64,000 nt of DNA from a virus (taxonomy: Duplodnaviria > Heunggongvirae > Uroviricota > Caudoviricetes): IMG/VR virus record IMGVR_UViG_3300021255_000114, positions 1-64,000 of that record, one strand, 5' to 3'. Positions 17,624 through 53,017 of the stretch are shown in pieces. The first letter of the stretch is position 1. Every line of letters begins with the position of its first letter. Both the position numbers and the translations under genes were made by a program. The notes beneath the pieces are model-generated. The model made no database searches. It worked only from the letters and a program-made list of their open reading frames with translations, and had not been told where the DNA came from.

Positions 17624-17630
17624 TATTTAT
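17624..17630 (+). promoter_or_regulatory. Putative late promoter (GGCTGA-TATTTAT)
   Basis: The 13-mer GGCTGATATTTAT is identical to the one upstream of the tail sheath gene. Confidence 0.6.
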
Positions 17631-17670
17631 GTATAAGAATAATACAATAGTAATAAAAACGTTAAATAAG

Positions 17671-19986: not shown

Positions 19987-20000
19987 AACAGGGAAAAGCG

Positions 20001-20047
20001 GCCTACGGTGACTCTAATAAAAAATAGCCGCCGTAGGCTTTTATTTG
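20001..20047 (+). terminator. Hairpin/terminator between fibre genes
   Basis: GCCTACGG...CCGTAGGC stem followed by TTTTATTT. Confidence 0.55.
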
Positions 20048-20114
20048 AAAAAGGAGTGATATATAGGGAAAAACAACTAAGATAATTGAAAAGAATAACA
20101 AAAAACAGTACATA

Positions 20115-23100
20115 ATGGCTGCAACAACAAATAGAAGGTTTACTGAATTATACAGGAACTCCACAGTGTTTGAAACGAAACAGGCTGCTATAACCGGTTT
20201 ATATAATCATGAACTCATAAACAGTTTAAAGGATGGTGAACCGTTGCTTGCCCGTTACATGGCATATTTTACTTGGGACGAGGGGAGCAAACAATATGTC
20301 CTTCAGTCCACGAAAAACGACAGTGCTACATTCACAAGAATTGTTTCGAATGAAACATCCGTTACTTCAACAAAGGAGTATATTGTTGGTGATATCATCA
20401 ATGTAACAGCAACCGAGGGAAATATCACAACCACAAAATCATACAAGTGTTCTTCAATACCTCAGGGTGGCGTCGCTGTGCCTGTAGGAAGTAATTTTGC
20501 AACCTCAGGATACTTTACGGAAATAACAAGTGCTTCGGTTACTCCGCAATCTGTCAAAACAATCCGTGTGTTGATGGCGGTTGCCACAGTGTTCGAGGAT
20601 AACAGCGGAAACCCTTCGTTTAAAAAAGAACCTCCAAAGGGACGGCTAACTATTTTTGAAGAGGATGATGCCATCCGTGAAATGATTAACAAGGCAAGCA
20701 TTTCAAGCCCTGATGGAACAATCAATATAAGCAATGCTGTTTCTGGTAAGGAAATACAGGTTAATCTCGGTACATCACTTGTTAAAAACACAGAGAATGG
20801 TGCTGATAAAGGCAAAATAGATGTCAATTTCGATAATAGGACTATCAGACAATACGCATCGGATTATGCAGACGAACAACTGCGAAACAAGTTGTATGTT
20901 TACCACGGTGATACCATTAAGGAATCTGAGACTACTGGCGAAGAGGGTAAATTGGATGTTAATACGGGTGTTACATTAAAGATATCTGATGGAACAGGAA
21001 GTGGTCCTGCCGCAGGTACGATAAATGTGTATCATGGAGATACTCTTGTCGAGTCAAGCACAAGCGGTGAAGTTGGAAAATTGGATGTTCGCACGGGTAC
21101 TTCTTTGAAAGTTTCAAACGGTGGCTCCGATAATCCTGATGCCGGTACAATTGATGTTAATATTGATGATGTTACAATTAAACAGAATACAACAGACAAT
21201 AAACTTTATGTCAATGTAAACCCATCATATGGTCTTGAAAGCGATTCAAACGATGGAATCAAAGTTAGACTAGGTGAGGCGCTTGCTTTCAGGACCGGTG
21301 ATTCAACAGCATCGAACAACGGTAAAATTGATGTTAAATATGATAATAGCACCATCGGTTTAAATAACAGTAACCAACTTATTGTTAATTTCCATAACGG
21401 CACAATGGAACGTAAGTCACATGAATCCGCAGGTTCCACTGTATACGATGGATGGGGTGTTAAACATGACACTACAATTACTGAGGTAAACGATGGTCTG
21501 CATGTAAATATTGACAGTACTACCATTTATCAAAATTCTAACGACTTAATATCTGTAAAACACGACACTAGTTTGAATGAAGATGCAACTAATGGGATAA
21601 GTGTCAATATTGATGGCGTAACAATCAAAAAAGATGAAACAAACAACGATGCGTTAAGCGTAAATCATGATACAACCATAACTGTAGATTCAACTAATGG
21701 CATAGGTGTTAATGTTGATGGTAAATCAATTAAACAAATTGAATCCGGAACCGATCAAAATAAGTTATATGTTAATATTGACGGTTTAACAATCAAAGAA
21801 TATCCTTCAGATTATGGAACGTCGTCTTTGCAGGATAAACTATACGTTAATATAGACAACGACACGCTTGTTTCGGACTCATCTACGGGAGTTATTTCAG
21901 TTAATTCGGCTGCTACTAGCATATTTGGTGAAAATGCAATTCAAATTGAGGAACATACCACAGGAAGCACGGTTGACGGTAAAACTGTTAAATTGAATAT
22001 TGACACAACCGCAAACACAGGTGATCCTAACGTATTAAGCCAATCTAATGACGGACTTAAAGTTAATTTGAATTTGCGTTTACTTACAGAACAAGAACTT
22101 GCAACTTTATCGGATTCAAATGTAAAGGAAGCTTATAAACTTGTTGGTAACGCCGGTTCTTCAGAAACACAAATTGGTTCTGTTATCAAGATATACAAGG
22201 ATAGTTCATTATATCGTGTATATCTCGGTCATTTTGATGATACTATTGATTCAAATGATCCACCTACTGTAACACCAGGCACAGGTTCTGAAGCACTGTG
22301 TTTCATATACCTTAAAGCCGATGGCACATATGAATTAGTGGCTGTTGACGTTGAATCATTCCTCCAGGAAAGTGAATTCAAAGATGGTTTGACCGTAAAT
22401 TCTTCAACCCACGAAGTTTCCGCAAATCTTTGGGATGGTTTGGTTATACATCCGATAACAGGTAAGAATGGTGCAATTCAAGCCAAAATAGGTAATGGTA
22501 TTCAATTCGGAACAGGAGATGAAGGCGAGAGACCATTTGAAATCAGGACAGGCAATGGTCTTGAATTCGGTACAGGAACAGAAGGACAGAGACCTGTTGG
22601 AGCAAAAATAGCCAATGGTCTTGTTTTTGGTACAGGAACCGAAGGTCAAAAAGCCGTTGAGGTTCGTTTAGGCAGCGGACTTTCTTTTGATGGAGGAACA
22701 GAACAATCACCAATTACCGACGGTGTGCGTCCTATTAAGGTCAACATCGGAGAAGGTTTGGTGATGGATAATAACAATATCAAAGTTAATTTAGGTACTG
22801 GACTTGGATTTGATGCTACAAGTGGTAATGAAGGCAAAATATACATTAACTATACTACAATAGGCGCTGCTAACCGCCCTGTATATTGGGATGGAACAAA
22901 CCATACTCCTGTTCAAATTGACTATGAAATCAATAAATCTGTTCCTGCCGATGCCGTATTCACGGATACAACCTACTCAAGCGGAAATGAAATCACCATT
23001 GACCCCACAAACAATCATATTAACCATAATGCCAAACTAGGTACTGCGTTTGTCCCAACAACCGTTGGAACAACAATCAGCGGATTCGGCGGGAGCGGTT

Positions 23101-24131
23101 CATTTAAAGTCCCGATTTTAAGTATTAATGAATATGGACATGTGACCGGTGCTTCTGAGGCTACGATGACAATTGCAATACCTGAGGCTAAGATTGTCAC
23201 TTACACAGCACCCCAATACACTCAGGGGCATTTATCACAAAATTGGGTAACCACTTACATCGATAATGCAATCACTGTGGGTGAAATTTATGATTCAGCC
23301 ATCAATAAACTTGACAACAAGATAAAGGTTCTTGCAGATGAATTGTCGGATGCTGAAGCAGTATTGACGCAAGCGATAGAAGACGAACCAAGGTACTATG
23401 CAAAATCAAGTTCGGCCGGTGACGCAAGCGCAATAACAGCTACTCTCGTTGACAGTAGAAAATTTGCCGTCGATGGCAATAATTCCAATAAACCATTGAA
23501 CGGCACTAAAGTTGATGTTTATTTCTCTACCGCACATACAACCAGTACAGCAACACTAAATATTAATAACACAGGCGCTTTTCCGCTTGTTTATAATGAC
23601 GCTAATTTTGATGCAACCCTCATTCAGGCAGGTACAACCCTTGCTCTTGTATTCGATAAGGAATATAACAGCAATGCCGGTTGCTATAGAGTTGTCGGTG
23701 GTGTCGGAAGTGGCAGTGGAAGCACAAATGGAATTACAGAAATTGATGAAGGTAATGGCATTAGCATTACAAAGAACTATGATGAAGTTCAAATAAATCC
23801 GAATGCCACGCCATATAGTAGTACTTGGTTTACTTTGAATGCCGGTGCTGATCCTGTAGTCCCAATTACGCCGGAGAATAATAAGGTTTACCGTGTGACC
23901 ACATCCGGTAACTATTATAATATGGCTTACATTTGGGATGCTGTCAATAGCAAGTATGTGCTGTCGACGGATATTAGTGTAACTGCCGCCGTTAAACTCG
24001 CCGCAAATATGATTCCCGAAGGGTCTACTTCCGGGGGTGCAAGCGAAATAAGTGGTCTTGCTACACTTCTGAAGTTTACCACAACTGGTGAACTTGCAAT
24101 GGAGAACACTTGGGATTGCGGAACCTACTAA
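20115..24131 (+). CDS. Long tail fibre protein (1338 aa) with beta-spiral shaft repeats
   Basis: Many V..D..TI and G.GL.F shaft repeats, GTG.EG.RP-type repeats x4, N.YGHVT motif, T.TLNINNTGA.P fibre domain and a WDCGTY terminus. Confidence 0.8.
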   Translation: MAATTNRRFTELYRNSTVFETKQAAITGLYNHELINSLKDGEPLLARYMAYFTWDEGSKQYVLQSTKNDSATFTRIVSNETSVTSTKEYIVGDIINVTATEGNITTTKSYKCSSIPQGGVAVPVGSNFATSGYFTEITSASVTPQSVKTIRVLMAVATVFEDNSGNPSFKKEPPKGRLTIFEEDDAIREMINKASISSPDGTINISNAVSGKEIQVNLGTSLVKNTENGADKGKIDVNFDNRTIRQYASDYADEQLRNKLYVYHGDTIKESETTGEEGKLDVNTGVTLKISDGTGSGPAAGTINVYHGDTLVESSTSGEVGKLDVRTGTSLKVSNGGSDNPDAGTIDVNIDDVTIKQNTTDNKLYVNVNPSYGLESDSNDGIKVRLGEALAFRTGDSTASNNGKIDVKYDNSTIGLNNSNQLIVNFHNGTMERKSHESAGSTVYDGWGVKHDTTITEVNDGLHVNIDSTTIYQNSNDLISVKHDTSLNEDATNGISVNIDGVTIKKDETNNDALSVNHDTTITVDSTNGIGVNVDGKSIKQIESGTDQNKLYVNIDGLTIKEYPSDYGTSSLQDKLYVNIDNDTLVSDSSTGVISVNSAATSIFGENAIQIEEHTTGSTVDGKTVKLNIDTTANTGDPNVLSQSNDGLKVNLNLRLLTEQELATLSDSNVKEAYKLVGNAGSSETQIGSVIKIYKDSSLYRVYLGHFDDTIDSNDPPTVTPGTGSEALCFIYLKADGTYELVAVDVESFLQESEFKDGLTVNSSTHEVSANLWDGLVIHPITGKNGAIQAKIGNGIQFGTGDEGERPFEIRTGNGLEFGTGTEGQRPVGAKIANGLVFGTGTEGQKAVEVRLGSGLSFDGGTEQSPITDGVRPIKVNIGEGLVMDNNNIKVNLGTGLGFDATSGNEGKIYINYTTIGAANRPVYWDGTNHTPVQIDYEINKSVPADAVFTDTTYSSGNEITIDPTNNHINHNAKLGTAFVPTTVGTTISGFGGSGSFKVPILSINEYGHVTGASEATMTIAIPEAKIVTYTAPQYTQGHLSQNWVTTYIDNAITVGEIYDSAINKLDNKIKVLADELSDAEAVLTQAIEDEPRYYAKSSSAGDASAITATLVDSRKFAVDGNNSNKPLNGTKVDVYFSTAHTTSTATLNINNTGAFPLVYNDANFDATLIQAGTTLALVFDKEYNSNAGCYRVVGGVGSGSGSTNGITEIDEGNGISITKNYDEVQINPNATPYSSTWFTLNAGADPVVPITPENNKVYRVTTSGNYYNMAYIWDAVNSKYVLSTDISVTAAVKLAANMIPEGSTSGGASEISGLATLLKFTTTGELAMENTWDCGTY

Positions 24132-24140
24132 AGAATAATT

Positions 24141-24171
24141 CCTCCTTGTCGGCAAAAAAACAGGGAGGTTT
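24141..24171 (+). terminator. Hairpin after the fibre gene
   Basis: CCTCCTTGT...ACAGGGAGG stem with a short T tail. Confidence 0.45.
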
Positions 24172-24191
24172 AAATATCAATTTCAAACTGC

Positions 24192-24809
24192 ATGAAATAT
24201 TTAAGGAAATTTGCAAACAGAAGGGAATTGGCTGATTGGGAACGATTACTTGATCGCTACAATTGGTACATTTTAAAAGACATTGGTACAACCGCGCCGC
24301 CTGATTTTGTACCAAATGTAACTCCAGGTTCTACAAGGAACACTTATGACGACGTTTCTGATATCACAGATGATGTACTTGCAACAACGAGCACAAGTGT
24401 TAAAATATTCAAGGGCGGTACGCATTATTATTGCCGTATTCCAAACCATATGCTTTGGCGTGTCATTTCGTGGAAAAAAGATGATGGAACATTCGTGTCA
24501 CGCGGAAATGACGCTTGGGGTGAGGAAAAAGGTGTTGTCGGATATTTCATTCCAATGACAATTGATGAAACAGAAACACCAGGTGATTTCCTGTTGAGTG
24601 ATTTCAATGACGATTTCCTTGTTCCTGTCATGTTGGGCGAATGGCACTGGACATCCCTTGGAACAACGGCTCCTACGGGATATACCTTCACTGAAGGTCA
24701 GGATACATGTGATGACATTTCAGAAGTTACACCTGCTGTTCAAGACGACTTCCCGTATATGAAAGTCGGAAGCGTGTATTATAGGAAGGATATCGGACCC
24801 GCAAATTAA
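24192..24809 (+). CDS. Small virion-associated protein with two Tyr-rich modules
   Basis: MKYLRKF N-terminus. Internal repeats GTTAP...DD.S.....K.G..YY. Confidence 0.6.
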   Translation: MKYLRKFANRRELADWERLLDRYNWYILKDIGTTAPPDFVPNVTPGSTRNTYDDVSDITDDVLATTSTSVKIFKGGTHYYCRIPNHMLWRVISWKKDDGTFVSRGNDAWGEEKGVVGYFIPMTIDETETPGDFLLSDFNDDFLVPVMLGEWHWTSLGTTAPTGYTFTEGQDTCDDISEVTPAVQDDFPYMKVGSVYYRKDIGPAN

Positions 24810-24828
24810 ACATCTTGACGACGTAAAG

Positions 24829-24873
24829 CAAAAATAACCCCCGATTTTTTTTTCGAGGGCTATTTTTTTTTTT
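24829..24873. terminator. Bidirectional terminator between convergent fibre operons
   Basis: AAAATAACCCCCGA...TCGAGGGCTATTTT hairpin with A/T tails. Confidence 0.65.
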
Positions 24874-25058
24874 GAAATTTTAAAATGATAATATATTTAA
24901 TATAAGTGCAGTAGAAAAATAACTTACAACAATGAGAGGTTAAAATGGGTTATCACTTATTATACGTTTGTCTATAATATTGCCGTAAATGTATTCTCCA
25001 CTTTAACTCCCCTTTATTTTTGAATTATCATTGTATTTTATTTTTGAAATATTTTGAT

Positions 25059-28000
25059 CTAATATAAACGTGCATCATATCCAATTGATGATTCGTGCTG
25101 TACTGTTACTAACATACCCGGTAGGTGACCTGTTTCTGTTTTATCATTAAAATAAAAGAAGTTCATGGTTATGTCATTAAAATTACTGAAAAAATAAGAT
25201 TCGGCGTCTTGGGGCGCAGTTTTAATTGTATTAATAAACATTTGTAGTTTACCACCCATAGTTGTATCATTGTAAAGTTCACCTTGACTGACATTGGCAA
25301 AATTAAATGTATATTTATGCCATATATGAGAATTATTTGAACCGCCAATACTTGGTATATTAATAGTAACACTTTGATTGTTAACTGTAGCAGTATAAGT
25401 ACCTGCTTGGCCTGCTGCTCCCGCATTATATTCGTTTATATCATTGGGTAACTGGCCATCCCAGTTTGCGGTTGTCAAATATATATTAGAGTCAGTTAAT
25501 AGTGTCTGGGTTGTACAGTTAGTGCCTCCCCACATAGACGGACCATCGTTGGTTGCAATAATGTAGTTAAAATGATCGTCAAAGCCTACTGATTCATAAA
25601 TAAACCTACCAGTTGTAAGTCCTATGTCAATCAGATACATACCATATAATAATATTACAGCACCAAGAGGGATATGACCATCAAGGCCGCCGCTTTCGCT
25701 AATTTTAGCTTGCACAAAAGCATGAATGTCATTAGTTTCTTTGTCGTTAAATATATCACTAAATAAAAAACAAAGAGATTCAAATGAATTATAAGGGCTA
25801 TTCCTCTCTGTATCTATAAGATAATACATTTTCATGTGCTGAATATTGCTACTTCCACTACCTGTAGAGGTAAACGTGATTGTATCTGTACTTGCATCGG
25901 TTGTTATAGACATTCCGTTACCGGCCACTAATGTTAGCGTATCAGTAGAAGTATCGGCAACAACTGAGGATTGTCCTGAAACTTCAATGGTTTTAAAACT
26001 ATCGGTAGTACCGGTACTTATGTTTTGCCAACTGCCATCGCCACGTAGATATTTATTCTCATCGCCGTTGCTTGGCTTTGGTACAAGCCCCATTTCACCA
26101 TTAGCACTTGACGATGCGCCTGTCATTGTCGGTATATATATTGTTGTGTTACTTGCAGCATTGGTCGTGAAACTACCTGACCAAGTACTTGATGTTGTAG
26201 AATTTCCGCCTTTTAGGGTAATTGTACTGTCATTAACCGTTCCTCCGCTGCCACCGGTCCATGGGACATTGACAACCGCATATCCTGTTGTTGTATCAGT
26301 TTCGACTCTATAATATCTACCTGTTGTGCTTGAGGCTTCTGGGAAGGAGCCTGAAGCCATAGTCACGTTGCTTGCAGAAACAGCAACATCATAAGTATTG
26401 CCACCATAAGTGGTACTGCCGTCGGTTATGGATATGTTTTTATCAAAATATAGGCGTCCGCCATTTGCTCTTATTGAGTCATATGTGTTTCCATTATTAC
26501 TCCTTATGAAATGTAGTCCTTTGCCTTTATCCGATACTTCTTGAAATAATATTGAATTTGCATTGATTATGTCTGAGTTATTCATATCCAAGCCAAAACG
26601 CGGTTCTGTGCTTTGGGATTTGTATCGATTTGCTCGGACTCTAAGATAGGTAGCATGGAGATAGCCATTGAGGTTTAAACGGTCAATCCTTGTTGGCTCG
26701 GTTGTTGAAGTGTCAAAAGACAACTTTGTTTGTTGTGTAGTATATGGAGCATATGTAATTTCCGTCCCGCTATTTGAGCCGTGAAGAATAGCATCCGCCG
26801 CTGTTGCGGTGTTTGTATCGGTTGCACTGATTTTGATGTTGAAATAACTGTTGTCCCCACTTTGGCCACTTTCTGTACCGGCGGCTTGATAGTCTATGGT
26901 AACATTGTTTCCTTGAGAGAAATTAATTGCTTTGGAAGCGATGTTGGTGCCTACTCGTGAGTTTCCGTTTACATAAACATTTCTCCAAGTATCAGTATCT
27001 GTACCTCCTCCACCACCGGTGACACCGATTTCGACTGTTGTCACTCCATCTGTCGTCGTTGGGGTAAATGTAACGTTTGAACCACCTGTAACTTTAAGTT
27101 TTGGACCGATTTGTATGTTTGTGTTGGTTGTGTCCCATAAAGTGTTTCCTGTGTGCAATATCTCTTCTGTACCGCCACCTGTGTTAAATGACGCTGCACT
27201 TCCATCAGGCATGTTGACATCCTTGTCAAAGTACAAATGGCCTGCATTTGCTCGAACAGTATCATATGCATCACCGGTATTTGCTCTTCTGAAGTGCAAT
27301 CCTTCACCTAATTCCGAGGTATCTTTGAACAAGATTGAATTCGCATTTGCAATATCGGAATTATTCATATCCATACCAAAAGCGTTTGTTGATTTGTATC
27401 GATTTGCTCGGACTTTAAAGTAAGTGGCATAAAGATAACCGTTGAGATTCAACCTGTCAGTCCATGTTGGTTCACTGGTTGAGGTGTCAAAAGATAACTT
27501 TGCTGTTTGCTGTGTGGTATATGGAGCATATGTGATTTCTGTTCCGTTGTTTGAACCATGAAGAATAGTGTCTGTTGCTGTTGCAGTGTTTGTGTCAGTT
27601 GCATTAATTTCTACATTGAAGTAGTCACTTGTTCCGGCATTGTATGCGAGGGTAATGTTGTTACCCGCTTTGAGGTTTAAGCCTTTGGTGTTTGTTCCTG
27701 TATCGGCTTTAAGGCTATTATCGACATATATTCCTCGCCACGTGTTTGTGTCAGTCGCACTGAATTTTAAACTGAAATAGTCGTTACTATCCGTGCCTTC
27801 GGCTTCATAATCTATAGTGATGTTATCACCGGCTTTGTAGTTGATAGCTTTGGATTCGATATCCGTTCCAATACGTGAAATTCCATCCGTATATACATTA
27901 CGCCATGTGTTCGTGTCACTCGCACTAATTTTGATATTGAAATAGTTCGCATTACCGCTTTGGCCTGTTCCTGTTCCTGCGGGTGCATAAGAAAGACTGA

Positions 28001-28388
28001 CATTAGACCCGGCAGTAAGGTTGAGACCTTTTGAATCAGTGCTATTGTCCCCACGTAATGTTCCGTTACTGTACACACTGCGCCATGTATTCATATCTGC
28101 ATCATTCGTGTCTTTTACCTTAATCAACGCAAATGGACGTTCTAAAAGGTTGGTCGAAGAATTTAAGGTTCCTTTAACGTAATAAAGTCCGTTGTTATTA
28201 CCATCCATTGTAACTGAGATTCTCATGCCGGGAAAAGCCGAACCGTCAGAGTCATTTATATACGCTTCAGCGTGGGCTTTGGTATCCCAAATACGTTCCG
28301 CAACAATCGGTACCGGTTTACCTAAATAGAAGGTGTTAACCGTTGCAAGATTGATTTGACCAGGTACATTATACTCTATATGTGACAT
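25059..28388 (-). CDS. Tail fibre protein (1109 aa) with internal tandem duplications
   Basis: DTNTWR.VY units x4, a duplicated ILHGSN.GTEITYAPY...RANRYKS block, VNVPW, and GLVPKP...KYLRGDGSW fibre motifs. Confidence 0.8.
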   Translation of the reverse strand: MSHIEYNVPGQINLATVNTFYLGKPVPIVAERIWDTKAHAEAYINDSDGSAFPGMRISVTMDGNNNGLYYVKGTLNSSTNLLERPFALIKVKDTNDADMNTWRSVYSNGTLRGDNSTDSKGLNLTAGSNVSLSYAPAGTGTGQSGNANYFNIKISASDTNTWRNVYTDGISRIGTDIESKAINYKAGDNITIDYEAEGTDSNDYFSLKFSATDTNTWRGIYVDNSLKADTGTNTKGLNLKAGNNITLAYNAGTSDYFNVEINATDTNTATATDTILHGSNNGTEITYAPYTTQQTAKLSFDTSTSEPTWTDRLNLNGYLYATYFKVRANRYKSTNAFGMDMNNSDIANANSILFKDTSELGEGLHFRRANTGDAYDTVRANAGHLYFDKDVNMPDGSAASFNTGGGTEEILHTGNTLWDTTNTNIQIGPKLKVTGGSNVTFTPTTTDGVTTVEIGVTGGGGGTDTDTWRNVYVNGNSRVGTNIASKAINFSQGNNVTIDYQAAGTESGQSGDNSYFNIKISATDTNTATAADAILHGSNSGTEITYAPYTTQQTKLSFDTSTTEPTRIDRLNLNGYLHATYLRVRANRYKSQSTEPRFGLDMNNSDIINANSILFQEVSDKGKGLHFIRSNNGNTYDSIRANGGRLYFDKNISITDGSTTYGGNTYDVAVSASNVTMASGSFPEASSTTGRYYRVETDTTTGYAVVNVPWTGGSGGTVNDSTITLKGGNSTTSSTWSGSFTTNAASNTTIYIPTMTGASSSANGEMGLVPKPSNGDENKYLRGDGSWQNISTGTTDSFKTIEVSGQSSVVADTSTDTLTLVAGNGMSITTDASTDTITFTSTGSGSSNIQHMKMYYLIDTERNSPYNSFESLCFLFSDIFNDKETNDIHAFVQAKISESGGLDGHIPLGAVILLYGMYLIDIGLTTGRFIYESVGFDDHFNYIIATNDGPSMWGGTNCTTQTLLTDSNIYLTTANWDGQLPNDINEYNAGAAGQAGTYTATVNNQSVTINIPSIGGSNNSHIWHKYTFNFANVSQGELYNDTTMGGKLQMFINTIKTAPQDAESYFFSNFNDITMNFFYFNDKTETGHLPGMLVTVQHESSIGYDARLY

Positions 28389-28417
28389 ATGTTATTTCTT
28401 TTCTTTTCAATATTATT

Positions 28418-31093
28418 TTAAGTGAATTGGACTTCTGTATATTGTAAACCGGATGCCCCGTTATGTACAGCAAATACTTGATATGTGACAATCGTGTTGT
28501 CTTCCAATTCGTAAGGTATGGTGTTTTGATAAACCCAGTTGCTTTTAACATCTTGACCAAGATAAAGTGTCCTTGTTACTGTCGCATTATGATTTGTATT
28601 GTTAACAACCGGCATTACAAGTATCATTGTAGTCTTACCGGTTTGTGCTGTCACTGTTCCAACTGTTGTCGTTCCTGTACTACACCATGCTGAAGTCAAT
28701 GATGATAGTGAAGCCTTTGTTGTAAATACAGAACTATAATCGCCGTTTGACAAATAAGCTGTTCCTCCAACAAAATATTTGTATCGGTATGAACACGATT
28801 TGCTTGCAGTTGCTGTACCGATTCCGATGATATTGTTTGATATGGTATTATCACTTTTTTTAGGTGTAACAGTCGTATCGTCTGTATATGGATAACTTGC
28901 AGTAAACGTATGTGAAGTTTCAGAAGTACCCTTAAACGCACTTGGATATGAAATGCTTGCACTGATGTCACTACCCGCCGTAAGGATACCTTGTGCATTG
29001 GCCGCCGGGTTATTAGCGATAAAGTCAGCAATGGTGTATTTCGTTGTGTCAGCTGACTGATAGTTACCTTGTGTTTTCGTGCCGCCGCTTGCCGTGGGTG
29101 TAACTGTCGTTCCAACTTCATATATTGAGTTCGGATTCCAACTCCATGTTAATGACGGGTTAACTTTTGCAACATCAATAACCACCATCAACATTTTTCT
29201 AATGATTTCTTCGAGGAAAGTTCCGACAGGGATGCTATCGCCAACCGAATATGTTCCGAGAGGATTATTGACATTGATGACTTGTGTTGTCACAGCCTCG
29301 CTGCTGCCGCTTCCAACACCACCAACAACACGATAAACACCGTTATAGTTTGTCCCGCCAATAGTGACTGTTGCTGAATCATAGACTAACGCTAACGTTG
29401 TACCGGCTTCAATGAGGCTTGCATCAAACAACGCGTTTTCATACACAAGATAATGTGCTCCGCTTGCGCCGTTCGAGCCACTAACATTCAACGTACAAGT
29501 GGATACTGTTTGATTATTTTGGAAATATATATCGAGTTTTGTTCCGTTGAATAAATTATAACGTCTACTTTCTACAAGGGTTGCTGTAAGGGCTACCGTA
29601 CCCGTTGAAGCGGTTGACGTTGTAGATTTACCATAATACCTCGGCTCATCCTCAATTGCTTGCGATAAAACGGCTTCATTATCTATAACCTCTTTGTTTA
29701 AACCCGCGATTTTATTGTCAAGTTTATTAATCGCGGTATCATAAAACATATTAGTTGTTATGGCATTGGCGTTAATAACATCTTGATATGTTGGGCTTAT
29801 ATGTGCAGTGTCATAAGTCGGTGCAGTATAGGTTGTGATTTTGTTATCCGGAAGTGTAATCGAAACGGTTGCCTCAGAAGCGTTGGTTACATGGCCGTAG
29901 TCATTAACCGTCAGTACAGGAATTTTAAATGAACCAGAACCACCATAACCACTGATAGTCGCACCTGTTGTGGTAGGTGTGAATCCACCGGAAAGTTTTA
30001 CATTGTGATTAATCGCATTACTATTACTGATAGTAATTTCGTTTCCGCTCGAATAGGTCGTATTAGTATCCGTCCAGGGGACATTAGTATAAGCAAGCCC
30101 TGTACTGTCTATAAGAACTGAGTAGCGTTTTTCTGTATTGGTGTCATCGGTTGAAGCGTTTGTAACAGCACTGTTTTTTACAGCGCCAACTTTAATTGCA
30201 CCAGCTGTATTTGTGGTTGCTGTTCCAAGATTCTTCTTTGTAACGGTGATTACTCCGTTTGTGTCTTGCGAAATTGTTGCAATAAATGATGTAGAGTTTC
30301 CATCTGCGCTCGGATCGGATACGGCTGTTTGTTTTACCTTAACCTCAGTTCCATCACTATATAGTTTTTTCGCATAAAGATAGCCATTTAGGTTAAGTCT
30401 GTTGGTTTTGGTTGGATTTACAGTTCCAAGATATAATTTACCGCCATTCCCATCAGTACCAACCCAAGTGGAATCGGCTGTTTCTGAACTGTACGGAGCG
30501 TATGTTATTTCAGAACCACTGTTTGTACCGTGTAGAATATTATCGGCAGCGGTAGCTTCGCTTGTAAACGTTGTCGTATCACCTGATACGAAATCCCAAT
30601 ACTCACTGCCTTCAGTTTCGCCGTTGAACATTAAACTTACAATTCCGGAAAGAATCCATGCATTGCTTTCTGTAAGTGTCGACCCTGCATATTTTATCGG
30701 AAACGCTCCGGTGTTGTTAATGTTAAACGTTGGATTTGCAACAGTATTTGGGTTGGTAAATTTTACTCGAATTAAAGGCCAAGTATTTTTAATGTTTGCA
30801 AGTGTATACCCTCCCGCTGCGCCGGTTATTGTTTTTGCTGCTGTACCTGATGCCGTTCCGCAAGTTAGATAATAAGGTTTTAATCCCCTTTGGAAGAATA
30901 ACTCGTTAAATGCGGTTTGTTTTCTTGCTTCCCTAAATGCTACCGTTGTAGCGTCCGGCGCGGTTACATCCGTAATGTTTGGTGGAATTATATAATGATC
31001 ATGACTAAAAATATCTTCGGTTACATTTGAATTGAAGATAATAGTTTTACTACTTTCTGTTGAATCTAAAAAACCTGATAGTGGAATTGCCAT
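28418..31093 (-). CDS. Tail fibre protein (891 aa)
   Basis: TC.TA..TAAKT, VKFTN.NTV.NPT.NINNTGA.PI and ISQDTNGVITVTK fibre motifs. Shares blocks with the 1338, 1109 and 402 aa proteins. Confidence 0.8.
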   Translation of the reverse strand: MAIPLSGFLDSTESSKTIIFNSNVTEDIFSHDHYIIPPNITDVTAPDATTVAFREARKQTAFNELFFQRGLKPYYLTCGTASGTAAKTITGAAGGYTLANIKNTWPLIRVKFTNPNTVANPTFNINNTGAFPIKYAGSTLTESNAWILSGIVSLMFNGETEGSEYWDFVSGDTTTFTSEATAADNILHGTNSGSEITYAPYSSETADSTWVGTDGNGGKLYLGTVNPTKTNRLNLNGYLYAKKLYSDGTEVKVKQTAVSDPSADGNSTSFIATISQDTNGVITVTKKNLGTATTNTAGAIKVGAVKNSAVTNASTDDTNTEKRYSVLIDSTGLAYTNVPWTDTNTTYSSGNEITISNSNAINHNVKLSGGFTPTTTGATISGYGGSGSFKIPVLTVNDYGHVTNASEATVSITLPDNKITTYTAPTYDTAHISPTYQDVINANAITTNMFYDTAINKLDNKIAGLNKEVIDNEAVLSQAIEDEPRYYGKSTTSTASTGTVALTATLVESRRYNLFNGTKLDIYFQNNQTVSTCTLNVSGSNGASGAHYLVYENALFDASLIEAGTTLALVYDSATVTIGGTNYNGVYRVVGGVGSGSSEAVTTQVINVNNPLGTYSVGDSIPVGTFLEEIIRKMLMVVIDVAKVNPSLTWSWNPNSIYEVGTTVTPTASGGTKTQGNYQSADTTKYTIADFIANNPAANAQGILTAGSDISASISYPSAFKGTSETSHTFTASYPYTDDTTVTPKKSDNTISNNIIGIGTATASKSCSYRYKYFVGGTAYLSNGDYSSVFTTKASLSSLTSAWCSTGTTTVGTVTAQTGKTTMILVMPVVNNTNHNATVTRTLYLGQDVKSNWVYQNTIPYELEDNTIVTYQVFAVHNGASGLQYTEVQFT

Positions 31094-31113: not shown

Positions 31114-32301
31114 TTATTTTACGTAATATGGATGACTTCCACTTGTTTGTGTGGACTGCGTCCTATAAAATCTATACGATTCAGTAATACCCGTTATATT
31201 ATCAGTAACATCTTTTGTTCTAACAAATTCAAGGGCTTCAAAAAATCCTGAGGCACCCCCAACACCAACTTGTGATGGCTGATTGCTGAAAGCCGCCGGA
31301 ACTGCAATATAAAAATACTGATTAGTTCCCATAGTTACAGTATATGACCTATTAACAGCGCTTGTTACAGCGGTTGTGTATCCGGTAAGGCCGCTATTTG
31401 CAAATGTTGAAATATTCAAACTCGAATCTGAAGACGCCCCATAAAAAATGTGATTAACCACGGTTATTGTTGCAGACATAGCCTTTGAATACGCGTCTTT
31501 AGTTATAGTGGTTGCCACAGAAACGTTTGAGGTTGAATTAATAGTTTTTGTAAACGTCCTGGACGTTCCTGAAGTTGTTCCGACAGTCCATCCACTTGGC
31601 GTTGATGCGTTAAAATCAGACATTGCTGAACCATTGAATGACAGTTTTGCTGTGGCTGTAACGCTCGTGTCTGTTGCTTTAAATATTACACTTGGACTAA
31701 CAGTCCAACTTGGTGAATAGTGTATGCTGTATATCAGATTATATACATCTGTAATTTCATTGTCAACATAATCTACATTTGCCTTGTAACTCCTGAATTC
31801 AACCATCTGCCCATCAGAATTTTTAATATACATCACCTCGTTGTTGGCAGATCTGCCAATGCCAACCTCACCGCTCTCCAGTTCATTTGGCATCTTGCCA
31901 ATAAGTTCATAATATGCGGTTTCGTTTACCTTTTCATAATATTTGAAACCCTTTGTTGCTATACCTATCTTAAGAAAAGCGGGGGTTGACGCACTTGCTG
32001 TTTCATATGGTGAAATGTACGCATTATTGATGTATAACGCGGTAAAGGTATTGCTTGAATTCCAAGTTTGACCGGTTGGTTCGACTGTGCCTAAAAGCCT
32101 GTAATGATAACCTGTAACTTTGATGATTTTGGGTTGTGTGGAAATTAAAGTGATAGATTCCGATGCCGGAATGAATGTATAGCCTGTGGCGGCATTATCA
32201 ATATCTGTAGTCGATGGTTTTTCCATATAATGGTACTCCACACGATCAGTGTTCACATTCTGACTATGGCGTCTGGAGACGTTTGTCTGTGGCATATGCA
32301 C
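31114..32301 (-). CDS. Fibre/decoration protein with nested Tyr-rich modules in its N-terminal domain
   Basis: The phage-fibre N-terminal motif K.P..L..GE..IG.....E..YIKNS is split by the insert. The C-terminus is Thr/Ser-rich and Ig-like. Confidence 0.65.
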   Translation of the reverse strand: MHMPQTNVSRRHSQNVNTDRVEYHYMEKPSTTDIDNAATGYTFIPASESITLISTQPKIIKVTGYHYRLLGTVEPTGQTWNSSNTFTALYINNAYISPYETASASTPAFLKIGIATKGFKYYEKVNETAYYELIGKMPNELESGEVGIGRSANNEVMYIKNSDGQMVEFRSYKANVDYVDNEITDVYNLIYSIHYSPSWTVSPSVIFKATDTSVTATAKLSFNGSAMSDFNASTPSGWTVGTTSGTSRTFTKTINSTSNVSVATTITKDAYSKAMSATITVVNHIFYGASSDSSLNISTFANSGLTGYTTAVTSAVNRSYTVTMGTNQYFYIAVPAAFSNQPSQVGVGGASGFFEALEFVRTKDVTDNITGITESYRFYRTQSTQTSGSHPYYVK

Positions 32302-40525: not shown

Positions 40526-43500
40526 ATGGCAAATAGAACAAATACAACAAGGCCACATTCAGCACCTGGTCTATATTTCAAGGATTCTGTGCAGACCTAC
40601 TCAAGCAAGTCACTTGGAATTACTACTCTTGGTGTTACGGGTGAAACACTTCGTGGTCCTGCATTCCAACCAATTTCAATCAGTAATTGGAGGGAATTCC
40701 AAACCTATTTCGGGGGTACAAGTACCGCCAAGTTCAAGGGCAGCCAATATCCGAAGTATGAACTTCCCTACATTGCCAAAAGTTACCTTGAGCAGAGTAA
40801 CCAACTTGAAGTTGTTCGTGTTCTTGGTTTATCGGGTGTAAATGCCGGTCCGGCTTGGGTTATTACAGCAACAAAACATAAAGTTTTTACTGGCTATGAC
40901 TATGTATTGCTGAGTTCAGAACCATCTGAAGAATGCGCAATTTACACAACACTCCCAAAACCACCATACATCGACGACAATTATCCCGATTACATCAAGA
41001 TTGCCTCGAACCTTGAATGGCATACATTGTGCAGTGCTTGTGACGATACTCGCATTGAGGATGAAGAGAAGCAGGTTTTTGACCTTACAAAAGGTGATAC
41101 AGTTCCTGACGCAAACACATTTACGGAGTATGATTACATCAAAGTCATACAAAAGTGGTTTTATACACCTGTTGACCACACTACAATTACTGATTTCAGC
41201 AAATACGTTACAGTGACACAATTCCCTGAGACGATTTCGGGCGAATCAGAAAAGAACATAAGAATTGCCACAATCGAAAACCCGTCAAGTGATGCTGATT
41301 ATGATTACTATGACTTGGAAAACACCGCTTATTGCTACGAAAAACAAGAAAATTATAACTACTACAAAAAAACGTGGAGATCAGGCGTACAACTTGAAGA
41401 GGAAGATTACTGTGAGGGAAATCGTAACAATATGGTTGTGGCAGTACTCCGTTCGCGTGGAGAACACAAAAAAGCAGCGTTTGTCCGTACACCGACCCAA
41501 GACGACATTGCTAATGGAATTTGCGATGATATCTATAGTTACGACGGCATAGAATATTTTGCAAAAGAGATACGTCTTGAACCTAGCAAATCATTGACAC
41601 TCGGTTCAAGTTGCAATCCGGGATTTTCAACTGTAACGGGTGATTTTACAGTCGACAGTTTCAATTACGGTACATTTACCATTGCCGTTGACACTATCTA
41701 TGGCGAAACAAAATACTACTCAGTATCTTTAAACCCGGGCGAAAAGAATTATATCTACAATGTAATCGGCGGAAATCCTGAAGAGGGTGATGCAGAAATT
41801 TACGTTGAGGAACTTTATGACGTTGCACTTCGCCAACTTATCGACGAAGGTGTGTTCAATGCCATCAACTCAGAGGTTATCAAATATCCTGCAATCAACA
41901 TTCTCCCAAAATTCGCCGACGTTGATGATATTATGACTGATTCGGTTCTCACCAAGAAATATCGCGGTAAACGCTATCTTTACAGCAATGAACTTTCCGA
42001 AGGTATAAAAGTAAGGTATAGCGAGGATGGCGGAAATACATGGTATGAAGGTGACGGCATCAATGGTGTTATTTACACAGTATTCGAGCGTACCAATGCA
42101 GCAACCGGCAAGAAAGAGTATTTCTATGGTGCATATACCGATGCCATTCAGTTCAAATATGAGATTTACGACGGTGAACCTAAAGACGTGGAATGGATTG
42201 AATGCTCGCAAACAGTTACAAACGAACAACAGAATGTCTTCGTGGCAAAACCTGAGTTTTTCGACAAACCTAATACCACGAACCCCGAATACATCAAGAT
42301 AATCACACCAAACGATAATCTTGTCAATGGTGACGATTCGATTGTTGTTGAAAATGGCGTTATTAAAGATGAAACAACCGGCACAGTAATCTCAGAAGAA
42401 AAGGTAACCTATTACCCATTCCATTTTCAGATTACAACAACGCAAACAATCGTTGGCAGAAATTCTGTAAAAATTACATTCCCGAAAAAGGCCGAACTAA
42501 AAGATTTCGAAGTTTATTCATACAGTAACCTTAATCCTAAACTTTATGAGTATGAATGGGACAAGGGAGAGGGTAACACTTTCATTTCAAGAAATGCAAT
42601 TCCAGAACTTGAACCAGGCACCTATGATTTCGTACTCTATACTACAATAGATGGTGATTATACCATCAAGATTGATGACCAGACTGTCACACTTACCGTT
42701 AAGAAGAGTAATGGTGTCAATTATGTGAAGAAAGTTACCGATATCACCGATAGCACAAGAGCAAAGAAGACAACCGAACGTCTTACGGTTTATAAATTCA
42801 GCGCAGACGTCGTTCATGGAAAATTCACGAACTGCGTGAAGGTTCTTGCTGACAATATGATTTATGTCAACAATACTACCGTTGATGATAAACATAATAT
42901 GACAGAGGATGTTTTCCCGATAACACTTGATTTCAACAACTACAAAGAACAGTACAGGTATGCTTCAACACCTTGGATAGTTTCCGAAATTAAAGGTAGC
43001 GCAGAACAGGTACAACTTGCCAAACTGTTCCGCTTCCATACGATTTCAGACGGCAACAATTCATCGCTTGAAGTCAAGATTTCAATTGAGAATATTGACC
43101 CTTCAACCGGTAAATTTGATGTTCTCGTCCGTAACTTTAATGATACTGACCTCAACACCAACGTCATCGAACGCTTTGTTGGATGTACTCTTGTTCCTGG
43201 TGACCCTGACTATATTGCGCTAAAAATTGGTTCATTCGACGAATCATATAATGCAGTTTCAAATTATATTACTGTTGAGGTTATTGAGAATGACACAACC
43301 AAGAATTCAATCCCGGCAGGATTCCTCGGATATCCAATGCGTGACTACAGTGGATTTGCTATCAAAGAGACTGCATGGAAGTACACCAAAATAGATAATC
43401 CAATGGATACATCAGTGTTTGTGAAGGTTGACAGTTTACCGGATACTGTTAAAGATACCGATCCGTGGTTTGTGTATATTGAGAGCGAAACCGGAAATAC

Positions 43501-44998
43501 ATATTACGGAAGAGAATTTGCCATCACATCAAACCCAACGCAGCCGTATTTCAAATTCAACACTGATGTTGATGAAGACATCAAGATCAAGAAACAATAC
43601 TTTGGCGTTTCCGACCTTACGGGAATCGATACCGATGCGTTGACTTATAAAGGTGTTGAGGCTTATAATGAAGTTCCCGCAGGTATGACACCTTGCTTCC
43701 ACCTTGATGCACGCATTCTTAATGGTGTGCCTAACGAGCATGGTGAAATTGAGAACGGCGATATTAAACAAACAGTTTCGGTTGACGGTATTACCGGATA
43801 CAGTTGGGTAACTGTTAACAAGAACATCACCACGAGTGAAGGTATTGAACCTCGTATCGGTTCGGAAAGTGTAATGGCCGGTACAATCTATGAAGACAAG
43901 AAATACCGTAAATTCACTGTGGCATTCTATGGCGGATGGGATGGTTGGGACTATTACAGAACCTACCGTTCGAACACCAATGAATATCGTGCCAAAGAAT
44001 ACAAAGGCTACATTAACAGTGTGAGTGGATATGGCGATATGTTTAACGTTGTTAAAAATCCTGAAGCCTTCAATTTTGATAGTAACCAAAAGGTCATAAA
44101 TTCTGACTACTATGCATATCTCGCAGGTGTCCGTCAGTTTAACAATCCTAAGTCGATTGCAATCAATGTACTTGCAACACCAGGTATTGACTATGTCAAC
44201 AACGGCCAATTGGTAAACGAAGTTATCGATATGGTTGAAGAGGATCGTCAGGATTGTATTTACGTTGTGACTACACCTGACAAACCATTCGGAGCAAGCG
44301 ACTCGAAGGACGATATGTATAATGCCGATGAAGTAGTTGCAAATCTTGAGGATTCAGATATTGACAGTAACCATACAACGACATATTATCCTTGGGTGAA
44401 GTATTTTGATGCAGACAATTCAGACTACATCTACCTTCCAATCACCCGCGACGTCGTTAAATCAATAGCTTTGACTGACAACCAGGCATTCCCGTGGTTT
44501 GCTGCGGCAGGTTGGACTCGTGGCCCGATTTCGGGAGACGCTCCAAAACGCAGACTGAAACAAGGTGAACAGGATACTCTTTATGACGGACGTATCAACT
44601 TCGTTGCAAGTTTCGCCGGCGAAGATTTCGGTGACACTAATGTAACAGACCGTATTTGGGGCGATAAAAACCTCCAGATAGCCGATAACCAACTCAACAG
44701 GCTGTCAGCACGCCGACTCTTGCTCCGCATCAAACGTATGTTACAGACTTCCTGCATTGGTCTCATCTTTGACCCGAACGACAACAACCAAACCAAGGCT
44801 ATCAGGAATTCAGTCGGAAGTGTCCTCGACTATATCAAAGAGAATCGTGGTATTACCGATTGGAGAATCGAAATCGACGATAGCCCGTCCACAACTGATC
44901 AACTCGGACGCGGTGTAACGTATTATATCAAACGCACCCCATTGCTTGAATGGATTTCATTCACGAGTGTCTTAACACCACAGGGTATGGAGTGGTAA
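40526..44998 (+). CDS. Contractile tail sheath protein (1490 aa) with large insertions
   Basis: N-terminal PGLY...G.T.RGPAF.P..I.NW.EF..YFG. C-terminal INVLATPG, YYPWV, PWFAAAG..RG, LY..RIN, WG.K.LQ, R...RRLL and F.PND. Confidence 0.95.
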   Translation: MANRTNTTRPHSAPGLYFKDSVQTYSSKSLGITTLGVTGETLRGPAFQPISISNWREFQTYFGGTSTAKFKGSQYPKYELPYIAKSYLEQSNQLEVVRVLGLSGVNAGPAWVITATKHKVFTGYDYVLLSSEPSEECAIYTTLPKPPYIDDNYPDYIKIASNLEWHTLCSACDDTRIEDEEKQVFDLTKGDTVPDANTFTEYDYIKVIQKWFYTPVDHTTITDFSKYVTVTQFPETISGESEKNIRIATIENPSSDADYDYYDLENTAYCYEKQENYNYYKKTWRSGVQLEEEDYCEGNRNNMVVAVLRSRGEHKKAAFVRTPTQDDIANGICDDIYSYDGIEYFAKEIRLEPSKSLTLGSSCNPGFSTVTGDFTVDSFNYGTFTIAVDTIYGETKYYSVSLNPGEKNYIYNVIGGNPEEGDAEIYVEELYDVALRQLIDEGVFNAINSEVIKYPAINILPKFADVDDIMTDSVLTKKYRGKRYLYSNELSEGIKVRYSEDGGNTWYEGDGINGVIYTVFERTNAATGKKEYFYGAYTDAIQFKYEIYDGEPKDVEWIECSQTVTNEQQNVFVAKPEFFDKPNTTNPEYIKIITPNDNLVNGDDSIVVENGVIKDETTGTVISEEKVTYYPFHFQITTTQTIVGRNSVKITFPKKAELKDFEVYSYSNLNPKLYEYEWDKGEGNTFISRNAIPELEPGTYDFVLYTTIDGDYTIKIDDQTVTLTVKKSNGVNYVKKVTDITDSTRAKKTTERLTVYKFSADVVHGKFTNCVKVLADNMIYVNNTTVDDKHNMTEDVFPITLDFNNYKEQYRYASTPWIVSEIKGSAEQVQLAKLFRFHTISDGNNSSLEVKISIENIDPSTGKFDVLVRNFNDTDLNTNVIERFVGCTLVPGDPDYIALKIGSFDESYNAVSNYITVEVIENDTTKNSIPAGFLGYPMRDYSGFAIKETAWKYTKIDNPMDTSVFVKVDSLPDTVKDTDPWFVYIESETGNTYYGREFAITSNPTQPYFKFNTDVDEDIKIKKQYFGVSDLTGIDTDALTYKGVEAYNEVPAGMTPCFHLDARILNGVPNEHGEIENGDIKQTVSVDGITGYSWVTVNKNITTSEGIEPRIGSESVMAGTIYEDKKYRKFTVAFYGGWDGWDYYRTYRSNTNEYRAKEYKGYINSVSGYGDMFNVVKNPEAFNFDSNQKVINSDYYAYLAGVRQFNNPKSIAINVLATPGIDYVNNGQLVNEVIDMVEEDRQDCIYVVTTPDKPFGASDSKDDMYNADEVVANLEDSDIDSNHTTTYYPWVKYFDADNSDYIYLPITRDVVKSIALTDNQAFPWFAAAGWTRGPISGDAPKRRLKQGEQDTLYDGRINFVASFAGEDFGDTNVTDRIWGDKNLQIADNQLNRLSARRLLLRIKRMLQTSCIGLIFDPNDNNQTKAIRNSVGSVLDYIKENRGITDWRIEIDDSPSTTDQLGRGVTYYIKRTPLLEWISFTSVLTPQGMEW

Positions 44999-51379: not shown

Positions 51380-53017
51380 ATGTCAACAAGGGAAGAAAAA
51401 GAAAAACAGCAGCAGATTTTGGAATCAAAACGCCAAATGACCAATTCCAATGCTGAAAAAAGCCAAAGGGATAAAGAGGTCATTGCATTGAAGGCCGCAA
51501 ACCAAATGCTTGAAGATGCAAAGGAAAATATCCGTGAGAAATGGCACGATGATCCATCAACAATGAATCGTCTTCTTGGATATATTGATAATGCAGAGGA
51601 ACAGAATATTGAAAAGGGCCGTTACCAATACAACGCATCTGAGGCCGAAATCAATAATTCAACATACAACGAGGTCTCGAAGTCTTGGGAGGAAAAATAT
51701 CAGAAACATCTTGAGAATAAGGGTATTACTGACGAGGAAATGCGTGCTAAATCAAGTGATGACGCAGCAGGTAAAGGTGTTAAAGTAATTATGAGTTCTA
51801 ATAGCAAGAAGGAAAAAGAAGGAAAGTGGTTTTCATTCAGGAAGAAGAAACCAGAAGTTGACAATAATGGTGAAGAAATCATAACCGAAATAGATAATGC
51901 CAAACGTACTCAAATAGGAAACGGTTACATTCCGGATACCGAAGAGGATAATGTTTCACCTGAAAAATTCATGAAGGAAATGGAACAGAAAGTTGAAAAA
52001 CAGAAAAACAATACATCAAACGATGAAAATGCAACAAAACCTATTGTTGATGTAAATGATAAAATCGAACAAAAACTCGATATCAAGGAACGTAGCAAAG
52101 TTTATGAATATCCTGAGTTTGATCCGTTAACCGTAAACCCGTTGACCCGATATGACATTATTGAATTACCATCACATGGAGAATGTTATGCACATAAGAA
52201 GGGACGTATTCCTGTAAGGGAACTTACTGCATCGGACGAGAATTTGATTGCTTCACCTAATATGTACGCAAACGGTCAATTGATTGAAACAATCCTTAGA
52301 AGATGTATTCTGGATAAGAATTTCAATGTTGATGAAATGTGCACCGGTGATAGGGATGCGGTTGTCATGTGGCTAAGGGCAACGGCATATGGCCCGGAAT
52401 ATAATGTTTCGGCTGTTAATCCGGATAATGGAAAAACATATAAAAGTACAATTAACTTATCCGATTTCCAGTTTAAAGTATTTGACCTGAAGGGTGACGA
52501 GAACGGTTATTTTGACTACACATTTGAGAATGGTGATGTTGCAAAATTCAAGATTCTTTCGTTTAAGGAAACCAATAAATTACAAGAAGATATTGCATTA
52601 CAATATATTAATCAGAAAAAATATACTGTTTACCAAAAGATAAAAGATATTAAATATCAAGTTGATGAAGTATTCAAAAACGAAACTGGTGATGAAATAT
52701 TGAATGACGCAATTGACTATATTTATGATTGGGCTAACAATGATTCACTTATAAAAGATGAAAATACGTTATATAGTAATTTCATGACTAGTTCTTTGAC
52801 AAAAAGGACTATTTCAATAAATGGAATTGAAGACTCGGAGTATATTGAAAATTATATCAATGAACTGCGAATTGCTGAATCAAAAAAATATCGCGAATAT
52901 ATATTCAGTCACAATCCGGGTATTGACTTTTCAATTACTATGGAAATTCCTGAGTCGGATGGAGGCGGCTCCTTTGAGTCTACCTTTCAGTACGGAGAGA
53001 CTATATTCATTTCTTAA
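51380..53017 (+). CDS. Baseplate hub assembly/tail chaperone protein (T4 gp26-like C-terminus) with long N-extension
   Basis: IELPS.G..Y, LTA.DE.LI, GDRDA...WLR.TAYG.EY and PGID. Confidence 0.7.
   Translation: MSTREEKEKQQQILESKRQMTNSNAEKSQRDKEVIALKAANQMLEDAKENIREKWHDDPSTMNRLLGYIDNAEEQNIEKGRYQYNASEAEINNSTYNEVSKSWEEKYQKHLENKGITDEEMRAKSSDDAAGKGVKVIMSSNSKKEKEGKWFSFRKKKPEVDNNGEEIITEIDNAKRTQIGNGYIPDTEEDNVSPEKFMKEMEQKVEKQKNNTSNDENATKPIVDVNDKIEQKLDIKERSKVYEYPEFDPLTVNPLTRYDIIELPSHGECYAHKKGRIPVRELTASDENLIASPNMYANGQLIETILRRCILDKNFNVDEMCTGDRDAVVMWLRATAYGPEYNVSAVNPDNGKTYKSTINLSDFQFKVFDLKGDENGYFDYTFENGDVAKFKILSFKETNKLQEDIALQYINQKKYTVYQKIKDIKYQVDEVFKNETGDEILNDAIDYIYDWANNDSLIKDENTLYSNFMTSSLTKRTISINGIEDSEYIENYINELRIAESKKYREYIFSHNPGIDFSITMEIPESDGGGSFESTFQYGETIFIS

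Follow-up and report, generated by a model that had tools for sequence, protein, structure and literature searches.

A small beta module, apparently nested three deep, in the tail sheath of a giant cattle-gut phage

Can a small domain take up further copies of its own kind at a single site of a phage tail sheath, and what shape would such an insert adopt? The question is raised by a stretch of 64,000 nucleotides (the window) in which a sequence-only reading had recognised, inside a sheath gene, three copies of a tyrosine-rich module, each placed in the turn of the previous one. The window is part of a genome of 372,793 bases on a single contig (a phage of ~373 kb), and its source is a giant, uncultured phage of the cattle gut. 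Eight public runs hold at least half of the genome's words, six labelled as bovine gut metagenome (from two studies) and two as gut metagenome, of which one may be the run that the record came from.

The insertions reside in ORF 40526-44998 (+ strand; 1490 aa), which encodes the tail sheath protein. Its C-terminal third (residues 1089-1488) matches phrog_23 with an E-value of 5.4e-36, and the tail-gene context includes ORF 51380-53017, a match to phrog_150 (baseplate hub; E = 1e-11). A Pfam scan of the sheath ORF itself returned no match; PF04984 or PF17482 was matched by 18 of 20 relatives scanned, with E-values up to 0.1 and mostly below the curated cut-off. Among cultured phages, 686 phage records match the sheath, of which the best covers 32% at 31.7% identity and none covers 80%. 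An assembly artefact is ruled out by three of four other runs examined, in which positions 40526-42800 are intact on a single contig (they are fragmented in the fourth), and by six relatives in which the whole region is present at 61-67% identity.

Three opening halves and a ladder of closing strands

All features of the first sheath site lie on the + strand. An outgoing stem strand (40871..40891, residues 116-122) leads into three opening halves, which start precisely where the sequence-only reading had placed them, at 40892, 41009 and 41153 (residues 123, 162 and 210 of the ORF). The opening half of unit 1 (40892..41008, residues 123-161) is followed by that of unit 2 (41009..41152, residues 162-209), which is diverged and carries a CxxC motif, and then by the opening half and turn of the innermost unit 3 (41153..41293, residues 210-256), a contiguous unit that ends in closing strand 3 (41294..41320, residues 257-265; rung score of 7.9 at offset 18). 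Closing strand 2 (41321..41347, residues 266-274; rung score of 5.2 at offset 9) and closing strand 1 (41348..41374, residues 275-283; rung score of 16.1) come next, and the returning stem strand (41375..41404, residues 284-293) ends the insert. The closing strands thus do follow the openings as claimed, with limits that were originally a few bases off and are better drawn as given here. Their spacing is exactly nine residues. Complete units standing head to tail, as in a tandem repeat, are not found, as the three opening halves precede the three closing strands; that the order is nested and not tandem is borne out by this sequence order, by profile tests and by the structural model.

Unit 2 contains His166, Cys169 and Cys172 (41021-41041), and its closing strand contains Cys270 (41333-41335). 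The three cysteines are kept in 9/9 three-unit rows of the sheath comparison, and together with His166 they may form a metal site or a disulfide. All 13 rows with Cys270 also have Cys169. Cysteine pairing was considered as a proof of the register and dropped as weak, since 10 more rows have Cys169 without Cys270.

The module elsewhere in the genome and the kinship of the units

The module measures 45-55 aa, and beyond the sheath the genome has intact copies of it in six ORFs. To describe it, an HMM was built from 31 intact copies with no sequence from the nested site (seven seeds chosen by eye, then iteration, with partly orthologous copies). Profile and HMM matches in other ORFs agree with the earlier proposal of a module common to the sheath and to intact copies elsewhere: 19 matches of at least 6 bits are present in 7 ORFs of the genome, many of them members of the training set, and two more are doubtful. 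The sheath itself holds the module at two further sites. At the second (42152..42739, + strand), an opening half (residues 543-595) and a weak closing strand (residues 729-738) flank an insert of ~133 aa in the turn; the module scores 14.3 bits open and 15.3 bits closed, and it is uninterrupted at the matching site of the relatives P0009, P0010, P0011, P0013, P0014 and P0020. This ~133-aa insert (42311-42709) looks beta-rich and had no match in a Pfam scan; relatives have a short turn there. At the third (43373..43516, + strand; residues 950-997), an intact module was found by eye and then served as a training seed, and relatives carry intact copies at the matching position.

Outside the sheath, a second nested pair occurs in ORF 31114-32301 (31900..32238, - strand), where an outer opening half (residues 22-63) and its closing strand (residues 126-134) enclose an intact inner module (residues 64-125). 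This pair scores 10.9 bits open and 18.8 bits closed (0/2000 shuffles), and its YY pairs lie nine residues apart, as they also do in P0135 and P0137. In P0135, the N-terminus of the orthologue of this ORF is fused to a sequence that matches the neighbouring ORF 28418-31093. Three intact copies (18316-18486, 18541-18672 and 19030-19215, + strand) are found in ORF 17629-19986, with two partial ones nearby, and two intact copies (24258..24794, + strand), recognised by eye and used as training seeds, in ORF 24192-24809, where they are kept in P0123 and P0141. Positions 17629-31093 of the window form a run of large, fibre-like ORFs rich in Thr, Ser and Gly (785, 1338, 1109 and 891 aa) with segments in common, for instance between 20115-24131 and 28418-31093; two ORFs of this run were scanned and received no library name. 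A further locus (L032:5262-17663, or G000:C1:89262-101663) comprises three large ORFs with two, one and four module copies within otherwise conserved proteins, again without a library name, and the copy number differs between orthologues. No Pfam or PHROG name was found for the module or its non-sheath carrier ORFs, which are probably virion proteins because they are placed in the structural region.

Beyond this genome, a profile of 17 intact copies searched against 1.84 billion representatives gave 23 matches, of which 21 contain the module and two are unrelated repeats; as the reach of such a short and divergent profile is limited, this number is a lower bound. Nineteen of the 21 module-bearing representatives are homologues of ORFs of this genome. 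A Pfam search with the 17 copies gave four single-member matches (best E-value of 0.014), and a profile search of the PDB for solved structures had a best E-value of 9.3.

The sheath units differ in how clearly they resemble the intact copies. The opening half of unit 1 alone scores 20.4 bits over HMM positions 1-38, and closing strand 1 adds ~12 bits; re-closed, the unit reaches 32.6 bits, a score attained by 0/2000 shuffles and 0/2000 random splices, and re-closing raises the score in 9/9 sheaths tested. Unit 3 (residues 210-265) scores 13.0 bits over HMM positions 2-46, which 1/2000 shuffles and 38/2000 random splices match. For unit 2, the opening half alone has 3.3 bits and the unit 4.9 bits (matched by 29/2000 shuffles and 93/2000 random splices), with a gain on re-closing in 7/9 rows. 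Profile-profile comparison with the intact copies yields probabilities of 97.6%, 24.9% and 94.1% for units 1, 2 and 3, respectively, against 3.0% and 0.5% for two control stretches. The search was also reversed: with an HMM from the innermost unit of six relatives, the window's unit 3 ranks first among 2761 ORFs of the genome (E = 1.3e-4), and two copies of ORF 17629-19986 were found blind, one in second place (E = 0.018) and one with an E-value of 2.7, with spurious ORFs interspersed at the lower ranks. By these sequence comparisons, units 1 and 3 are homologous to the intact module copies. The expectation that an HMM from intact copies would align all split copies was realised for units 1 and 3, and in unit 2 the alignment is weak.

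The same scores say less about which strand closes which half. When all 1481 sheath 9-mers were tried as completions of opening half 1, two tied for the best score (32.1 bits): the outermost strand of the nest and the closing strand of the sheath's intact copy. Moreover, any closing strand improves any opening half, and strand 1 is the best for all three according to the HMM. Since every closing strand helps every opening half, sequence scores leave the register and pairing of the nest unfixed.

Recent DNA duplication was considered as the origin of the nest and is ruled out, as there are no direct DNA repeats in 40800-41500. The idea of one copy duplicating into itself, put forward initially, is not borne out: besides the lack of DNA repeats, units 2 and 3 reach a profile-profile probability of only 0.55% with each other, and separate insertions from the genome's pool of copies fit equally well. 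With no repeats left and the units so diverged, the insertions were probably old and made separately.

Predicted structure and nesting depth among relatives

An AlphaFold2 model was made of residues 101-345, without the sheath core, from 24 sequences. It has a mean pLDDT of 85 (93-98 over the insert, residues 121-290) and a pTM of 0.63. Its strands comprise residues 118-129, 138-140, 156-167, 184-186, 204-216, 228-230 and 244-248, followed by an unbroken strand of 35 residues (259-293). Strand 118-129 spans the outgoing stem and the start of unit 1, to which 138-140 and 156-161 also belong; the opening half of unit 2 takes up 162-167, 184-186 and 204-209, and the long strand, of which closing strand 3 is a part, has the returning stem as its tail. 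One of the genome's intact copies outside the nest (pLDDT 93) is predicted to have strands at residues 4-7, 21-22, 39-44 and 47-53, that is, a strand, a short strand, a strand, a turn and a strand, and this pattern occurs three times in the model of the nest. The four-strand model of the 54-aa module is smaller than an Ig sandwich. According to the prediction, the insert chain runs out and back as a beta stalk of three module copies.

The overlap of fold-search targets was used as a stand-in for the superposition of units. In a search of 48,161 chains, the best Z was 2.7 for the triple model and 2.9 for the single module, which says nothing for or against a new fold. All Z values lie below 3, which is noise for kinship, so the chains matched are not relatives of the module and the argument drawn from them is indirect. 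Of ten chains matched by the triple model, four are also matched by the single module in the same target range: 3svk_A and 8gqg_A via unit 3, and 9crz_B (50 aligned) and 4uae_F (45 aligned) via residues 164-274. The latter range aligns as one unit; it begins where opening 2 starts and finishes where closing 2 ends, which is what nesting would lead one to expect. No SBHM family was among the Pfam matches of the 17 copies and no SBHM chain among the fold-search matches listed. ESM Atlas matches reached at most 0.81 and are leads only; another ESM Atlas search gave no usable match. The reading had anticipated three stacked copies of one fold. A threefold strand pattern and a single return strand of 35 residues are indeed predicted, the equivalence of the units being judged through the fold-search stand-in.

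For unit 2, weak by sequence, membership of the same module is thus indirectly supported, mainly by the model through its strand order and by the shared fold-search targets. One could instead suppose that only units 1 and 3 are the module and that a two-pass domain of other origin, rich in Cys, forms unit 2, which would make a mixed nest like ordinary sheath insertions. The low sequence scores of unit 2 would fit, as would the HMM never aligning its entry strand and its own CxxC and return-strand Cys in all nine three-unit rows. We nevertheless regard this as rather improbable, because the modelled strand order and the nine-residue closing block are the same as in the module, two chains share the intact module's target ranges and re-closing brings a gain in most rows.

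Relatives were drawn from 120 listed of 3536 homologues; with the window, 102 of 121 rows are anchored on both sides of the site. Among the matches listed, 39 of these 102 have an insert of at most 30 aa, five of 141-180 aa, ten of 181-230 aa, 37 of 231-320 aa and 11 a longer one. P0068, P0072, P0085 and P0086 have an insert of 25 aa only, with both stem ends and without the module. From the 63 inserts longer than 140 aa (own and relatives listed), 31 with a module-type closing strand beside the stem were taken as the ladder set; among the matches listed, most of the other 32 fall into a sister group whose insert is a different one. P0029 and P0033 look module-bearing by eye yet fall under the ladder threshold, and P0061 is counted yet looks like a false row. 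Within the ladder set of the matches listed, the closing-strand score is positive at offset 9 in 22/31, at offset 18 in 16/31 and at offset 27 in 8/31, and no other offset up to 40 is positive in more than 6/31 inserts. The ladder ends after two rungs in the inserts of 148-177 aa (third rung negative in 5/5), and those of 191-201 aa have three positive rungs and a negative fourth in 7/7; at 423-629 aa, the fourth rung is positive in 5/7. An ungapped matrix was also used to count the openings by their hinges, but so many sites escaped it that the counts are not usable. The prediction that nesting depth would vary between related sheaths came true, with the insert missing in some and about two, three or four rungs in others.

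Further domains extend this series. P0007 and P0008 have three rungs and a further domain within the unit-3 turn, and P0018, P0019 and P0021 appear to hold a further domain inside unit 2. In P0017, residues 151-206 are an intact module in the unit 1 loop, not the turn, which would make a side branch. By eye, P0028, P0030 and P0033 (inserts of 530-629 aa) may have more than four units, with extra short closing strands off the nine-residue step. The P0034-P0120 group (31 rows; one clade with a support of 99) has a different insert of 220-304 aa at the same sheath stem; the one scanned (P0034) received no Pfam name. A homologue search with residues 118-290 alone gave 440 candidates, none of which scored, a single-protein scan of viral contigs gave one stretch with none confirmed, and a scan with alignment A1 gave 31 loci, mostly without the insert.

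A rapid tree built from the C-terminal core (102 rows; supports by SH-aLRT only; without a true root) places the two-rung forms inside a clade of three-rung forms with a support of 99. On it, P0010/P0014 (148-151 aa) and P0009/P0011/P0013 (290-403 aa) form sister groups, and one 28-aa form groups with the deepest forms (support of 94). Nesting depth has changed several times among the relatives, and the tree gives no direction.

As the pairing is not fixed by sequence scores alone, the site might also be a tandem run of three incomplete domains whose completion follows a different register or uses strands that a neighbouring subunit supplies in trans. Unit 3, however, is contiguous like the intact copies, inner halves and inner rungs are gained or lost together in relatives with the outer ones retained, the single-chain model is confident and residues 164-274 align as one unit, all of which makes such a completion very improbable.

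A putative stalk and its precedents

Our preferred reading, to which we assign a probability of about 70%, is that the three openings and the nine-residue closings in reverse order fold as a three-copy beta stalk, which would probably stick out from every subunit and serve as a spacer or an adhesive bristle. In the models, an intact module would run from an entry strand through a loop, a short strand, a second loop and a hinge strand to a turn and a closing strand. Within the nest, a unit's hinge strand would pass straight into the entry strand of the unit inside it, and all closing strands would merge into the 35-residue strand. The entry and exit of the module are presumably adjacent, with the turn at the far end, and with such a geometry a complete module inserted in frame at the turn would lengthen the rod and leave the contractile core untouched. 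Each added unit would contribute nine return residues, or ~3 nm (3.3-3.4 Å per beta residue), and three units with the stem would measure ~11-12 nm if straight. The inserts may have arrived at different times from the genome's many module copies, and the innermost turn would accept a further module in some cases and a tip domain of unrelated origin in others. The stalk, of which residues 101-345 are modelled, would project from the sheath surface; extra domains in other sheaths face away from the tube, according to the portion of PMC9230969 consulted. The least certain step is the last, in which a Tyr-rich surface or tip may bind weakly to glycans of the host cell or the gut.

The stalk could also act as a strut or shield that touches neighbouring subunits or folded-back fibres, and so stabilise or mask the tail without binding glycans. 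A role of this kind is proposed for extra sheath domains in the consulted part of PMC9230969, and a module present in several structural-region ORFs could allow like-with-like contacts. Depth, however, differs between close relatives, 39 of the 102 anchored sheaths among the matches listed have no insert, and the tip is replaced by domains of other kinds. So much variation would not be expected of a fixed contact in a lattice, and we hold a strut to be unlikely. Near-neutral build-up is a second option, in which a harmless module with adjacent ends spreads through virion surface loops and nests at the most tolerant site, the turn. The 19 matches in seven ORFs, the P0017 copy in a loop and the variable copy number of orthologues are what such spread would leave behind. 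It is hard to reconcile with a three-unit form kept across sheaths that are 61-67% identical in this region, with a rung step held at nine residues and with the synthesis cost of each copy in every subunit, and we give it little credence. A wider picture, which we offer tentatively and at somewhat below even odds, is that one 50-aa module, which may be a new fold, serves a clade of gut jumbo phages as a plug-in across the virion. Through its adjacent ends and a turn open to any insert, it would build telescopic single-chain stalks that grow by nine residues (~3 nm) at a time to a depth of two to four units or more, with exchangeable tips kept at a tunable distance from the tail.

Such a spacer would be of practical interest. 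If the model holds, it is compact and length-quantised with both ends at its base, which could be used in protein or tailocin surface display in the laboratory. The role of extra sheath domains becomes testable with a small expressible fragment. A literature search, with subscription papers and supplements mostly outside its reach, found no paper on this module or sheath.

The earlier reading knew of no described case of self-nesting. Two precede this one, and the principle is already known from them, as far as the consulted parts of the papers describe it. In Si3 of the cyanobacterial RNA polymerase beta' subunit, there are eight SBHM copies, four of them discontinuous (PMC10895346). Like the sheath nest, Si3 has non-tandem copies of one small beta domain, with SBHM-2 to -5 assembled from distant parts of the chain, and forms a long arm (150 Å) on a core loop with a lineage-dependent copy number. 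Judged by the features of Si3, the outer sheath copies are likewise discontinuous and completed by the returning chain (re-closure gain in 9/9 sheaths, ladder and return strand), and several copies of one domain are present, by sequence for units 1 and 3 and, indirectly, by the model and the shared fold-search targets for unit 2. Si3 differs in belonging to a cytoplasmic enzyme and not to a virion, in its domain and in being branched with several continuous copies, whereas in the sheath nest the split always sets off one nine-residue closing strand, and all rungs are joined in one continuous strand. In the flagellin of G. thiophilus (Geovibrio-type), D5 is a duplicate of D4 inserted in a D4 loop (PMC11532411). 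These outer domains are self-nested as well, yet they are larger beta-sandwich domains nested only two deep, and the consulted part of the paper describes no depth series.

Among contractile sheaths, Russian-doll insertion of different domains (I-IV) is textbook knowledge (PMC6088184), and for jumbo phages there are accounts of extra domains made of two segments (PMC9230969). In the sections consulted, these Russian-doll or type 3 multi-domain sheaths share with the present one the sheath host, domains within domains and outgoing and returning segments, and their extra domains lie away from the tube and are most numerous in jumbo phages (PMC6088184, PMC9230969). Unlike the units here, those domains are mutually different and often Ig-like, and the same sections describe no small-module repeat or nine-residue ladder. 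A small beta unit of a phage fibre, residues 14-57 of the Klebsiella phage Kp7 tail fibre gp52 (7xyc_A), has the lowest listed rmsd to the module (2.0 Å over 38 residues); its Z of 2.4 equals that of unrelated chains, its identity is 5% and it lacks the entry strand, so it is a lead only. What is new here is the module, the strict rule of one nine-residue strand and a depth series among the relatives. Nested architecture appears only as end states in the consulted parts of the papers on Si3 and flagellin (PMC10895346, PMC11532411); the natural series of the sheath, from none through about two and three to four rungs, with or without a tip domain, allows nested growth to be followed between relatives.
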